From Escherichia coli O127:H6 str. E2348/69 (GTDB lineage: Bacteria > Pseudomonadota > Gammaproteobacteria > Enterobacterales > Enterobacteriaceae): DNA of 64,000 nucleotides. Shown piece by piece: positions 36,919 to 40,022 of this stretch; position 1 is the stretch's first letter; every line of letters begins with the position of its first letter. The stretch lies in NCBI RefSeq assembly GCF_000026545.1, contig NC_011601.1; one strand, written 5' to 3'. The notes under the pieces are model-generated. The model had not been told where the DNA came from, ran no database searches, and saw nothing but the letters and a program-made list of their open reading frames with translations. Position numbers and translations under genes: made by a program.

Positions 36919-39147
36919 ATGTACACACAGACCCTGTATGAGTTAAGTCAGGAGGCTGAACGCCTGTTACAGCTTTCTCGCCAACAGTTGCAGTTACTGG
37001 AAAAAATGCCTCTCTCTGTACCCGGAGACGATGCGCCACAACTGGCTTTACCCTGGAGTCAGCCTAATATCGCCGAACGTCACGCGATGCTGAATAATGA
37101 GTTGCGTAAAATTTCCCGACTGGAAATGGTGCTGGCGATTGTCGGTACTATGAAAGCAGGGAAATCAACCACCATTAATGCCATTGTTGGTACGGAGGTT
37201 CTGCCTAATCGCAATCGCCCAATGACTGCGCTGCCGACGCTTATTCGCCATACGCCCGGGCAAAAAGAACCGGTACTGCATTTTTCACATGTCGCGCCAA
37301 TCGATTGTTTAATTCAAAAATTACAACAGCGCCTGCGTGATTGCGATATTAAGCATCTGACCGATGTGCTGGAAATAGATAAAGATATGCGTGCGCTTAT
37401 GCAGCGGATCGAAAATGGCGTCGCTTTCGAAAAATATTATCTGGGTGCCCAGCCTATTTTTCATTGTCTGAAAAGTTTGAATGATTTGGTGCGACTGGCG
37501 AAGGCGCTGGACGTCGATTTTCCTTTTTCTGCTTACGCCGCCATTGAGCATATTCCCGTGATTGAAGTGGAGTTTGTCCATCTGGCGGGGCTGGAGAGTT
37601 ATCCCGGTCAATTGACGTTACTGGATACCCCCGGGCCAAATGAAGCCGGGCAACCGCATCTGCAAAAAATGCTTAACCAGCAGCTGGCACGCGCCTCGGC
37701 GGTACTGGCGGTGCTGGATTATACGCAACTGAAATCGATCTCCGATGAAGAGGTCCGTGAGGCGATTTTGGCGGTGGGGCAATCGGTGCCGCTGTATGTG
37801 CTGGTCAATAAGTTCGATCAACAGGATCGTAACAGTGACGACGCCGACCAGGTGCGGGCACTGATTTCCGGAACGCTGATGAAAGGCTGTATTACGCCAC
37901 AGCAGATATTTCCGGTGTCGTCGATGTGGGGCTACCTGGCGAATCGGGCGCGCCATGAGTTAGCCAACAACGGTAAGTTACCCGCGCCAGAGCAACAACG
38001 CTGGGTGGAAGATTTTGCCCATGCCGCGCTCGGCAGGCGCTGGCGTCATGCCGATCTGGCGGACCTCGAACATATTCGCCATGCTGCCGATCAGTTGTGG
38101 GAGGATTCGCTGTTCGCCCAGCCAATTCAGGCGTTGCTTCATGCCGCTTACGCTAACGCCTCGTTGTATGCTCTGCGATCTGCCGCGCATAAACTGTTGA
38201 ATTACGCGCAGCAGGCGCGGGAATACCTGGATTTTCGTGCGCACGGGTTAAACGTCGCTTGTGAACAATTGCAGCAAAATATCCATCAGGTCGAAGAAAT
38301 TTTGCAGCTATTGCAACTCAATCAGGCGCAGGTGAGCGGCGAGATTAAACATGAAATCGAGTTGGCCCTGACCTCCACCAACCACTTTCTGCGTCAACAG
38401 CAAGATGCGGTGAATGCGCAGTTAGCCGCGTTGTTTCAGGATGATTCGGAGTCGTTAAGTGAGATGCGTACCCGCTGTGAGACACTGTTACAGACGGCGC
38501 AGAACACCATCAGTCGCGACTTTACGCTGCGCTTTGCCGAGCTTGAGTCCACCCTTTGCCGGGTGTTAACCGATGTTATTCGCCCCATTGAGCAACAAGT
38601 CAAAATGGAATTGAGCGAGTCAGGGTTTCGTCCTGGGTTTCATTTTCCTGTTTTTCACGGCGTAGTTCCCCACTTCAACACTCGCCAGCTGTTCAGTGAA
38701 GTCATTTCGCGCCAGGAAGCAACGGACGAGCAGAGCACGCGTTTAGGCGTTGTGCGTGAGACTTTTTCGCGCTGGTTGAATCAGCCCGACTGGGGACGGG
38801 GAAATGAGAAATCCCCGACAGAGACGGTTGATTACAGTGTGTTGCAACGAGCATTAAGCGCAGAAGTCGATCTTTATTGCCAACAAATGGCTAAAGTTCT
38901 GGCAGAGCAGGTCGATGAATCTGTTACGGCAGGCATGAATACTTTTTTCGCTGAGTTCGCTTCATGTTTGACGGAATTACAGACGCGTTTACGCGAAAGT
39001 ATGGCTCTGCGTCAACAAAATGAATCGGTGGTCAGGCTGATGCAACAGCAATTGCAGCAGACTGTGATGACTCACGGCTGGATTTACACCGACGCTCAGC
39101 TGTTACGCGATGATATTCAAACACTTTTCACGGCAGAACGATATTGA
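36919..39147 (+). CDS. crfC: Dynamin-like GTPase (clamp-binding sister replication fork colocalization protein)
   Basis: 742 aa; P-loop GTMKAGKST near the N-terminus; long coiled-coil C-terminal region. Confidence 0.88.
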   Translation: MYTQTLYELSQEAERLLQLSRQQLQLLEKMPLSVPGDDAPQLALPWSQPNIAERHAMLNNELRKISRLEMVLAIVGTMKAGKSTTINAIVGTEVLPNRNRPMTALPTLIRHTPGQKEPVLHFSHVAPIDCLIQKLQQRLRDCDIKHLTDVLEIDKDMRALMQRIENGVAFEKYYLGAQPIFHCLKSLNDLVRLAKALDVDFPFSAYAAIEHIPVIEVEFVHLAGLESYPGQLTLLDTPGPNEAGQPHLQKMLNQQLARASAVLAVLDYTQLKSISDEEVREAILAVGQSVPLYVLVNKFDQQDRNSDDADQVRALISGTLMKGCITPQQIFPVSSMWGYLANRARHELANNGKLPAPEQQRWVEDFAHAALGRRWRHADLADLEHIRHAADQLWEDSLFAQPIQALLHAAYANASLYALRSAAHKLLNYAQQAREYLDFRAHGLNVACEQLQQNIHQVEEILQLLQLNQAQVSGEIKHEIELALTSTNHFLRQQQDAVNAQLAALFQDDSESLSEMRTRCETLLQTAQNTISRDFTLRFAELESTLCRVLTDVIRPIEQQVKMELSESGFRPGFHFPVFHGVVPHFNTRQLFSEVISRQEATDEQSTRLGVVRETFSRWLNQPDWGRGNEKSPTETVDYSVLQRALSAEVDLYCQQMAKVLAEQVDESVTAGMNTFFAEFASCLTELQTRLRESMALRQQNESVVRLMQQQLQQTVMTHGWIYTDAQLLRDDIQTLFTAERY

Positions 39148-40022
39148 CCAAGACGTTACTGGACGGCCCCGGTCGCGTGCTGGAGTCGGTTCATCCGCGC
39201 TTTTTAGTAGATCTGGCGCAGGGCGATGATGCCCGCCTTCCACAAGCCCATCAGCAGCAGTTTCGTGAACGACTGATGCAGGAACTTCTTGCGCGCGTGC
39301 AGCTTCAGACATGGACGAACGGCGGCATGTTAAATGCGCCGCTTAGTCTGCGTCTGACATTGGTGGAGAAACTGGCGTCGATGCTGGATCCCGGTCATCT
39401 GGCGCTGACGCAGATCGCGCAGCATCTGGCGCTGCTGCAAAAAATGGATCACCGCCAGCACTCTGCTTTCCCGGAGCTCCCCCAGCAAATTGTCGCCTTG
39501 TATGAGTGGTTTTCAGCCCGTTGTCGCTGGAAGGAAAAGGCGTTAACGCAACGAGGCCTATTGGTGCAGGCGGGTGAACAGAGCGAGCAAATTTTTACCC
39601 GCTGGCGTGCTGGGGCGTATAACGCCTGGTCGTTGCCTGGGCGCTGTTTTATCGTTCTGGAGGAGTTGCGCTGGGGTGCATTTGGCGATGCCTGCCGTCT
39701 GGGAAGCCCGCAAGCGGTGGCGTTGTTGCTGGGTGATTTGCGCGTGAAAGCGACACAACATTTGGCAGAGAGTATCAATGCGGCCCCGACCACGCGTCAC
39801 TATTACCATCAGTGGTTTGCCTCTTCGACCGTTTCGACGGGCGGGGATCATGCTGATTTTTTAAGTTGGCTGGGAAAGTGGTCTACGGCAGATAAACAAC
39901 CTGTTTGCTGGTCAGTGACCCAACGCTGGCGAACTGTCGCACTGGGGATGCCACGACTCTGTTCAGCGCAGCGTCTGGCGGGGGCAATGGTCGAGGAAAT
40001 CTTCTCTGTAAATTTGGTGTAA
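39144..40022 (+). CDS. yjcZ: Uncharacterized protein co-transcribed with crfC
   Basis: 292 aa ORF starting at TTG and overlapping the crfC stop by 4 nt. Confidence 0.75.
   Translation: MTKTLLDGPGRVLESVHPRFLVDLAQGDDARLPQAHQQQFRERLMQELLARVQLQTWTNGGMLNAPLSLRLTLVEKLASMLDPGHLALTQIAQHLALLQKMDHRQHSAFPELPQQIVALYEWFSARCRWKEKALTQRGLLVQAGEQSEQIFTRWRAGAYNAWSLPGRCFIVLEELRWGAFGDACRLGSPQAVALLLGDLRVKATQHLAESINAAPTTRHYYHQWFASSTVSTGGDHADFLSWLGKWSTADKQPVCWSVTQRWRTVALGMPRLCSAQRLAGAMVEEIFSVNLV

Follow-up and report, generated by a model that had tools for sequence, protein, structure and literature searches.

The crfC–yjcZ (rdcA–rdcB) pair of Escherichia coli E2348/69: a conserved four-nucleotide overlap with an Escherichia-specific TTG start codon and an internal sigma-28 promoter

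Two adjacent genes were analysed in the window, i.e., the whole stretch of 64,000 nucleotides from E. coli O127:H6 str. E2348/69 (NC_011601.1), and both lie on the plus strand. The first one, crfC (also yjdA or rdcA), extends from its ATG start at 36919 to 39147 and encodes a dynamin-like GTPase of 742 amino acids, as seen in the open reading frame and its translation and in agreement with PGAP. The name CrfC is reportedly the alternative one used for the RdcA GTPase by Ozaki et al. in 2013. The product matched the CrfC equivalog model of NCBIfam (NF007368) with 1592.3 bits (cutoff 1146) over residues 1–742, and Pfam Dynamin_N with 67.2 bits (cutoff 27). The P-loop GTMKAGKS occupies residues 76–83 (37144–37167), DTPG and NKFD are also present in the translation, and the G1 (GxxxxGKS/T), G3 (DxxG), and G4 (N/TKxD) motifs of a dynamin-type G domain were all found. 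The second gene, yjcZ (also rdcB), extends from 39144 to 40022 and encodes an all-alpha accessory protein of the GTPase with 292 amino acids, according to Pfam, PGAP (which names it rdcB), and AlphaFold. It matched Pfam PF13990 (YjcZ) with 476.7 bits (cutoff 27) over residues 21–287, and its AlphaFold model was all helical with a mean pLDDT of 91 and a pTM of 0.91. These matches and the PGAP name confirm the identities crfC and yjcZ given in an earlier note on this DNA. No GTPase domain was found in YjcZ by Pfam and NCBIfam profile searches. The possibility that YjcZ represents a split-off dynamin stalk or the fold of a known GTPase regulator was rejected because its PDB fold matches were only generic helical ones and none was dynamin-like. 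Assignment of the pair to a known anti-phage system was also rejected, as PADLOC gave 0 matches for YjcZ and, for CrfC, no more than a weak one to LeoBC.

That the two proteins are partners has been published before. It was reported for E. coli K-12 that RdcA binds RdcB tightly in the two-hybrid system, that the rdcA and rdcB knockouts each phenocopy dgcE, and that the diguanylate cyclase DgcE is activated by the RdcA/RdcB complex, which docks on its MASE1 domain (Pfiffer, Sarenko, Possling, and Hengge, 2019; PMC6510439). In the same work, RdcA was shown to dimerise and its T103D catalytic mutant was inactive, the two genes were called the rdcA-rdcB operon, and complementation was performed with this operon intact. 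Both genes were recovered again in a transposon screen from 2026 (PMC13031359). YjcZ is thus a partner, or accessory subunit, of the CrfC GTPase. The earlier note had proposed such a role for YjcZ, and the proposal holds, but it had been published beforehand and hence does not count as a prediction.

The genes meet in the sequence TTGA (39144–39147, plus strand), in which the yjcZ start codon TTG (39144–39146) overlaps the crfC stop codon TGA (39145–39147). The junction reads ...GAA CGA TAT TGA in the crfC frame and TTG ACC AAG in the yjcZ frame, with four shared bases, and the PGAP/RefSeq annotation of E2348/69 contains the same two coding sequences, the TTG start, and the 4-nt overlap. The yjcZ frame is closed upstream by a TGA at 39111–39113 (plus strand, read from the sequence), and no ATG, GTG, or TTG was found in this frame between that stop and position 39144, so the TTG is the first canonical start of the yjcZ open reading frame. 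It is also the only start in the yjcZ frame which touches the crfC stop; on this point the open reading frame list, the raw sequence, and PGAP all bear out what the earlier note had stated. The junction is TTGA in K-12 BW25113 too. Of 5426 complete E. coli genomes, 5125 contained the exact 30-mer centred on TTGA and 0 its ATGA version, so the TTG counts as fixed in this species; the identity of the 3.55-kb crfC–yjcZ region across E. coli was 97.7–100%.

The junction was compared across 80 species-level genomes with one crfC–yjcZ locus each. As in the window, crfC was followed by yjcZ, adjacent and on the same strand, in all 80 loci, and the crfC stop and the yjcZ start were never more than 5 nt apart. 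A 4-nt overlap was present in 75 loci, a 1-nt overlap in one, and a 2-nt spacer in the remaining four; the TGA bases were invariant wherever the overlap was 4 nt. The codon homologous to the TTG at 39144 was ATG in 77 of the 80 loci and TTG in three, all of them Escherichia. Because TTG is confined to Escherichia among these genomes, a derived change from ATG to TTG follows, and the TTG is best read from the alignment as an Escherichia-specific substitution of an ancestral ATG, not as an ancestral design feature of the pair. That it has lasted throughout Escherichia may reflect neutrality and not selection. Among 21 aligned YjcZ orthologues, the first residue was placed identically, and L5, L6, G8, P9, R11, L13, and E14 were conserved, in line with the conservation of residues 5–14 across genera. 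Up to the junction, the per-site entropy of 69 distinct junction sequences followed the third codon positions of crfC, and from yjcZ codon 5 onward it followed those of yjcZ. Within Escherichia (five sequences), yjcZ codons 2–12 contained 5 synonymous and 0 non-synonymous differing sites. The conservation pattern places the TTG at 39144 in the true, ancestral start position of yjcZ. In distant relatives with 20–30% identity, the GTPase–YjcZ junction had GTGA overlaps or a 1-nt gap, and the GTPase gene directly preceded the YjcZ gene wherever the upstream sequence was informative. The retention of the NTGA overlap in 75 of the 80 species and in relatives with fully diverged nucleotides argues for selection on the overlap itself. 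The crfC–yjcZ arrangement is real and conserved and did not arise as a chance feature, but it is ordinary. As a separate observation, distant YjcZ homologues also occurred in three-gene clusters of dynamin, YjcZ, and patatin; no paper on operons of dynamin and patatin was found in the literature collection searched, and such clusters may give a clue to what the uncharacterised YjcZ family did ancestrally.

The pair lies within the geometry expected of translationally coupled genes (4-nt or 1-nt overlap, or a gap of a few nucleotides), and E. coli genes with 4-nt overlaps were reported to be mostly strictly coupled and enriched in heteromeric complexes (PMC6728339, PMC10666635). No Shine-Dalgarno sequence was found at the yjcZ TTG, as the best anti-SD pairing of −2.8 kcal/mol corresponds to the 46th percentile of positions inside crfC, and none was found at the yjcZ start across genera, where the mean of −2.5 kcal/mol was at background level. 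Since the SD is missing in every genus, termination-reinitiation would be the most likely way of translating yjcZ from the bicistronic mRNA. Coupling of yjcZ to crfC, which the earlier note had read from the overlap, is plausible given the conserved 4-nt overlap, the missing SD, and the weak start codon. It still has to be inferred because such overlaps are usually, not always, coupled: bioBF has a 4-nt overlap with a weak SD, yet is uncoupled (PMC6728339). No hairpin sequestering the start was found at the junction (MFE of −31 kcal/mol compared with a shuffle mean of −30.9, z = −0.05), and the lack of any special mRNA structure, together with the missing SD, is compatible with termination-reinitiation; on the other hand, an upstream ribosome would have no occluding structure to melt, which counts against coupling. 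A literature search, which included initiation-site and N-terminomics data, returned no published experiment on the crfC–yjcZ junction.

In addition to the presumed bicistronic mRNA, a second source of yjcZ transcript lies inside crfC. The intragenic sigma-28 (FliA) promoter TAAAGTTCTGGCAGAGCAGGTCGATGAA at 38892–38919 (plus strand), in the 3' end of crfC, is an exact match to the published (yjdA)yjcZ motif and is located 225–252 nt upstream of the yjcZ TTG. Based on typical sigma-28 spacing, transcription is predicted to start at about 38926, approximately 218 nt upstream of the TTG. The motif TAAAGCTT-N11-GTCGATGT/AT was kept in most Citrobacter, Enterobacter, and Kosakonia loci and in others. 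Consequently, the idea that the TTG change arose together with this promoter to compensate for the extra mRNA was rejected, as most genera with an ATG start have the promoter motif as well. When fliA was deleted, the value for yjcZ fell from 52 to 1, whereas that for yjdA stayed at 11 (Fitzgerald et al., 2014; PMC4183435), and FliA-dependent activity of the intragenic promoter was later confirmed (bioRxiv 10.1101/188474). In a hypermotile strain, yjcZ was listed as 22.8-fold up, and crfC is not named in the main text of that study. The values of 1 for yjcZ and 11 for yjdA suggest that, under the conditions of the fliA study, read-through from crfC contributed little yjcZ and the sigma-28 transcript made up most of the yjcZ mRNA; this transcript dominates yjcZ RNA in motile cells. 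The sigma-28 mRNA does not allow translation of full-length crfC; coupling to CrfC synthesis can therefore not be the only basis of yjcZ translation. The low independent initiation of yjcZ proposed in the earlier note thus has to be qualified and fails at the transcript level, where the promoter in crfC gives a separate yjcZ mRNA (PMC4183435). Scanning for sigma-70 promoters and terminators gave uninformative counts, at the level of shuffled sequence, and none stood out between crfC and yjcZ.

We hypothesize, with fairly good confidence, that the locus is the rdcA–rdcB pair with a TTG start at the ancestral position, a likely termination-reinitiation at the overlap, and an additional yjcZ-only mRNA from sigma-28. 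In the Escherichia lineage, an A-to-T change would have turned ATGA into TTGA, which has persisted since. On the bicistronic mRNA, ribosomes ending CrfC synthesis at the TGA would restart one base upstream at the TTG. Such reinitiation would link the output of RdcB to that of CrfC, and the TTG would presumably lower the restart yield relative to ATG. The conserved sigma-28 promoter in crfC, as published, yields yjcZ-only mRNA while the flagellar regulon is active; thus, the supply of RdcB is not exclusively coupled to CrfC synthesis.

The strongest rival is independent translation, in which the overlap is only compact packing, RdcB comes mainly from the sigma-28 mRNA by de novo, SD-independent initiation at the TTG, and ribosomes terminating on crfC add little. 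The fliA-dependent drop of yjcZ with yjdA left in place, the increase of yjcZ in the hypermotile strain, whose study does not name crfC in its main text, the conservation of the sigma-28 motif across genera, the precedent of the uncoupled bioBF overlap (PMC6728339), and the open yjcZ start without stable occluding structure all agree with it. On the other hand, the anti-SD calculation and general knowledge predict that a TTG with no SD initiates poorly alone, the NTGA overlap is kept in 75/80 species and in relatives at 20–30% identity, and Pfiffer et al. complemented with the intact rdcA-rdcB operon. Independent translation is thus possible but not the probable account of the locus. In another alternative, ribosomes on the sigma-28 mRNA would enter at a crfC-frame AUG at 38935–38937 (plus strand; the Met of ...TAGMNTFF...), read the last 70 crfC codons, stop at the TGA, and reinitiate at the TTG, so that RdcB would always be made by reinitiation, also where full-length CrfC is missing. 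This hypothetical entry site is about 9 nt downstream of the predicted TSS, 70 crfC codons remain from it to the TTGA, and G-rich bases just upstream pair with the anti-SD at −5.7 kcal/mol. Most genera, including most of those keeping the promoter motif, have this Met codon, and a non-start Leu codon replaces it in locus L005. However, the SD-like bases lie 1–2 nt from the AUG, too close for canonical use, conservation of the CrfC protein explains the Met equally well, and the scheme depends on a predicted TSS and a putative 70-aa C-terminal peptide of CrfC, so we consider it improbable. Another crfC-frame ATG at 39040, with an SD of −5.8 kcal/mol, was rejected as the start of a conserved coupling ORF because that Met is specific to Escherichia.

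A mis-annotated start, by which RdcB would begin at GTG codon 12 (39177–39179) or at the first in-frame ATG, codon 45 (39276–39278; both plus strand), and the TTG overlap would be irrelevant, can be set aside as highly improbable: ATG is the generally preferred start codon and the GTG has a better anti-SD match than the TTG (−5.5 kcal/mol), but residues 5–11 of YjcZ are kept across genera while their codons vary synonymously at the third position, 77 other species have ATG exactly where Escherichia has TTG, and the frame switch in codon-position variability together with conserved residues 5–14 rules out both downstream codons. The GTG was rejected as residue 12 varies across genera (T, M, V, S, or P), the codon is GTA in Escherichia sp. 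E1V33 (L003), and the conserved L5, L6, G8, P9, and R11 lie upstream of it. A start at ATG codon 45, where no SD was found (+0.3 kcal/mol anti-SD pairing), would remove 44 residues, including 11 invariant ones (G8, R11, L13, E14, F20, V22, L24, Q37, R41, R43, and L44), and the first 24 positions of the Pfam domain.

The preferred reading, a coupled rdcA–rdcB pair with an additional sigma-28 mRNA, is built largely of known parts, since the genes, the annotated TTG start, the operon, the internal sigma-28 promoter, and the protein partnership have all been described. The comparison adds a small point, namely that at this strongly conserved overlap a single lineage has the weak TTG in place of ATG. 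This makes the junction a clean natural test case for how start-codon strength, reinitiation, and an internal promoter jointly determine the amount of an accessory subunit relative to its GTPase, here in the DgcE/c-di-GMP biofilm switch. A broader scheme, which we regard as doubtful, would take the enterobacterial pair as a trimmed module of a CrfC-like dynamin GTPase, YjcZ, and a patatin-like phospholipase with overlapping or near-abutting genes. YjcZ would then be an adaptor between the GTPase and an effector (the phospholipase elsewhere, DgcE in enterics), the Escherichia TTG and the sigma-28 promoter would tune the adaptor:GTPase ratio, and RdcB from the sigma-28 mRNA might be made by reinitiation after the 70-codon ORF.

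Paired bacterial dynamin-like proteins include the two-in-one DynA of B. subtilis, LeoA/LeoBC of ETEC, and DLP1/DLP2 of Campylobacter. As in crfC–yjcZ, the GTPase gene in these systems adjoins the gene of a working partner, whose co-transcription is presumed in the case of yjcZ, and CrfC gave a weak LeoBC match (E = 3e-6, PADLOC) and a DynA match. However, their partner is itself a dynamin-like GTPase or a helical domain derived from dynamin, whereas YjcZ has neither a GTPase domain nor a dynamin-like fold match. With the coupled ATGA pairs of Huber et al. (2019, PMC6728339; 2023, PMC10666635), crfC–yjcZ shares the −4 overlap, the weak or absent SD, the encoding of a heteromeric complex, and the conservation of the overlap through evolution. 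Those pairs start with ATG or GTG, whereas yjcZ of Escherichia starts with TTG and its coupling is putative; unlike them, yjcZ can also be transcribed from a promoter of its own within the gene that precedes it. The (yjdA)yjcZ promoter is one of the three listed intragenic sigma-28 promoters, alongside (flhC)motAB-cheAW and (yafY)ykfB, and its motif in the window is identical to the published one (Fitzgerald et al., 2014; PMC4183435). It differs from the other intragenic sigma-28 cases in that the yjcZ start overlaps the upstream stop, so the promoter gives an mRNA without the full coupling partner. The closest known system is RdcA/RdcB of K-12 (PMC6510439), which represents the same genes at an orthologous locus, with yjdM upstream and proP downstream in both strains. 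The differences from it are only strain-level substitutions, e.g., the synonymous CTG/CTT at yjcZ codon 6 and Met/Leu at one CrfC residue.

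The crfC-yjcZ locus is an already known and annotated gene pair, to which this analysis makes two modest additions: the ATG start of yjcZ in a conserved ATGA junction has changed to TTG only in Escherichia, and a gene for a patatin-like phospholipase comes third in deeper relatives of the family. Within the window, crfC (742 codons) lies at 36919-39147 and yjcZ (292 codons) at 39144-40022, both on the plus strand, according to the ORF list and raw sequence. The raw sequence joins them in a TTGA junction, also on the plus strand, in which the yjcZ TTG (39144-39146) shares bases with the crfC TGA (39145-39147); the crfC frame reads GAA CGA TAT TGA and the yjcZ frame TTG ACC AAG. 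The yjcZ frame opens after a TGA at 39111-39113 (plus strand), and reading the sequence from there to 39144 revealed no in-frame ATG, GTG, or TTG. RefSeq/PGAP annotates the same two CDSs (crfC and rdcB) with an identical 4-nt overlap, so the overlapping TTG start proposed in the earlier note is right to the base; the interpretation offered there is supported in part. The first protein scores 1592 bits against the CrfC equivalog profile (cutoff 1146) and has a Dynamin_N domain, with the G1, G3, and G4 motifs visible in its translation, and YjcZ matches PF13990 over its full length (476.7 bits). The 3.55-kb crfC-yjcZ region is 100% identical in E2348/69 and 97.7-99% identical in practically all of the remaining complete E. 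coli genomes, and at least 80% of it is covered in 5401 of 5426 such genomes. Five of the 5422 places matching the region in complete E. coli assemblies lie on records labelled plasmid; either true transfers or errors in replicon assignment may account for these. Disrupted alleles also occur in E. coli, including a locus interrupted by IS1, an rdcB pseudogene that directly follows the crfC stop and is missing its N-terminus, and proteins of 438-442 aa with both Dynamin_N and YjcZ Pfam matches, one cluster of which has 40 member sequences (sources NZ_CP025869.1 (H9), NZ_CP032789.1 (L083:1539-2015), and the fetched proteins P0018, P0019, and P0022).

The start of yjcZ was assessed by aligning orthologues from Escherichia, Citrobacter, Kosakonia, Enterobacter, Phytobacter, Huaxiibacter, and Superficieibacter and by comparing 80 species-level genomic loci. 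The start position is identical in all aligned orthologues, and residues L5, L6, G8, P9, R11, L13, and E14 vary little or not at all. The codon homologous to the TTG is ATG in 77 of the 80 loci; the other three, all Escherichia (an E. coli-named clade genome, Escherichia sp. E1V33, and E. whittamii), have TTG. Across 69 distinct junction sequences, the entropy at each site showed variability only at crfC-frame third positions before the junction and only at yjcZ-frame third positions from codon 5 on, with zero variation in the TGA bases. Among five Escherichia sequences compared, yjcZ codons 2-12 differ only synonymously, at five sites, one of them being GTG to GTA at codon 12. The exact 30-mer spanning TTGA was found in 5125 of 5426 E. 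coli genomes, and its ATGA version in none of the 5426. By these sequence comparisons TTG is the genuine start, and it arose from the ancestral ATG through an A-to-T change that has become fixed. Initiation at ATG codon 45, the downstream start that would speak against the earlier note, was rejected as it would remove 11 invariant residues and 24 Pfam-domain positions. A start at GTG codon 12 was dismissed because this codon is variable in other genera.

The overlap itself is conserved: it measures 4 nt in 75 of the 80 species and 1 nt in one, with a 2-nt spacer in four, and relatives at 20-30% identity retain GTGA overlaps or a 1-nt gap. The yjcZ start has no Shine-Dalgarno sequence, its best anti-SD pairing of -2.8 kcal/mol ranking at the 46th percentile among positions taken arbitrarily within crfC; across genera the mean is -2.5, and crfC's own start reaches -6.1. 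No unusual mRNA structure was seen at the junction (z = -0.05). Only about 3% of E. coli genes start with TTG, which is several-fold weaker than ATG, so without a Shine-Dalgarno sequence it should start translation poorly alone. Reporter work showed that 4-nt overlaps in E. coli are usually strictly coupled via termination-reinitiation, that this coupling breaks down when the spacer is about 20 nt long, and that genes for subunits of heteromeric complexes show these overlaps more often than expected; bioBF, one of five pairs tested, was uncoupled (PMC6728339, PMC10666635). Published profiling and N-terminomics studies were searched and yielded neither an initiation site nor an N-terminus for yjcZ. 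Translational coupling of crfC and yjcZ is plausible, and the evidence for it is circumstantial but coherent.

The low independent initiation of yjcZ that the earlier note derived from the overlap is complicated by a known sigma-28 promoter inside crfC, and the step from the overlap to low independent expression is unsafe at the transcript level. A FliA binding site and promoter driving yjcZ were mapped inside yjdA (crfC), and RNA-seq values fell in a fliA deletion from 52 to 1 for yjcZ and from 111 to 11 for yjdA (Fitzgerald et al., 2014, PMC4183435). FliA-dependent activity was confirmed in a follow-up study (bioRxiv 10.1101/188474), and yjcZ was 22.8-fold up in the 2024 transcriptome of a hypermotile strain. 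In the window, the 28-nt motif at 38892-38919 (plus strand), 225-252 nt upstream of the TTG, matches the published motif with zero mismatches. A recognisable TAAAGCTT-N11-GTCGATGT/AT motif is kept in most Citrobacter, Enterobacter, Kosakonia, Lelliottia, and Leclercia loci and is degraded in Trabulsiella, Superficieibacter, Atlantibacter, and Franconibacter. Its synonymous positions are also conserved in most enterobacterial genera (-252 to -225 from the yjcZ start, relatives' loci L004-L081), and this nucleotide-level conservation points to selection acting on the promoter within the coding region. A joint origin of promoter and TTG was rejected, since the promoter predates the TTG change. 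As full-length CrfC cannot be made from the sigma-28 transcript, RdcB would arise from it by one of two routes: de novo initiation at the TTG lacking a Shine-Dalgarno sequence or, speculatively, a restart by ribosomes that had entered at the 5'-proximal AUG (38935) and finished a short crfC-frame ORF. A separate allelic difference lies at 39001-39003, ATG (Met, ...RESMALR) in E2348/69 versus CTG (Leu, ...RESLALR) in K-12, so that in E2348/69 the crfC frame holds one further ATG downstream of the promoter, without a Shine-Dalgarno sequence (-0.4 kcal/mol).

The partner role proposed for YjcZ is correct and already published, and an absence of interaction with CrfC is contradicted by the same work. 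The names rdcA and rdcB were given by Pfiffer et al. (2019, PMC6510439), who showed that each deletion phenocopies dgcE in matrix production, CsgD level, csgB::lacZ, and c-di-GMP, and that DgcE activation requires the GTPase activity of RdcA. As cited there, an independent study found the same interactions, and the original suppressor genetics date from 2007. A 2026 FRET-to-sort transposon screen again identified both genes as positive regulators of c-di-GMP, and in it the sigma-28 target ynjH 'exhibits strong association' with the RdcA/RdcB system (PMC13031359); ynjH lies at another place in the genome and is a possible third component. An alternative role of CrfC in clamp binding and chromosome partitioning is attributed by a citing paper to Ozaki et al. 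(2013).

Among 1.84 billion representative proteins, a profile search recovered only 261 relatives of YjcZ. In all seven contexts sampled for distant relatives at 20-30% identity, a patatin-like phospholipase gene directly follows the YjcZ gene with a 4-10 nt overlap. Wherever the contig reaches, a full-length CrfC-like dynamin gene lies upstream, with one exception (L087:6001-8630), a DUF3944–YjcZ fusion plus patatin without dynamin. The trio of dynamin GTPase, YjcZ, and patatin, in this order and with stops and starts overlapping or abutting, was located in the fetched loci L084:112-4485, L086:2-2714, L090:3579-8152, L092:1-3849, L093:86-4389, and L094:3-2679. Enterobacteriaceae have only its first two genes, and enterobacterial relatives at 36-44% identity adjoining yjdM likewise show only the two-gene form. 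The trio went unrecognised by PADLOC, and no paper uniting bacterial dynamin-like proteins, patatin-like phospholipases, and operons turned up in a text search.

The AlphaFold model of YjcZ, built from a 79-sequence alignment, is of high confidence (mean pLDDT 91, pTM 0.91), with residues 1-10 scoring lower, and entirely helical, and Foldseek against the PDB gave no match (best E = 2). YjcZ was rejected both as a GTPase and as a dynamin-stalk-like protein. DynA, LeoA/LeoBC, and DLP1/DLP2 represent a two-dynamin class, and the crfC-yjcZ pair resembles them in combining a dynamin-like GTPase with a co-encoded partner. However, the pair falls outside this class, because YjcZ is no GTPase and has no resemblance to a dynamin stalk.
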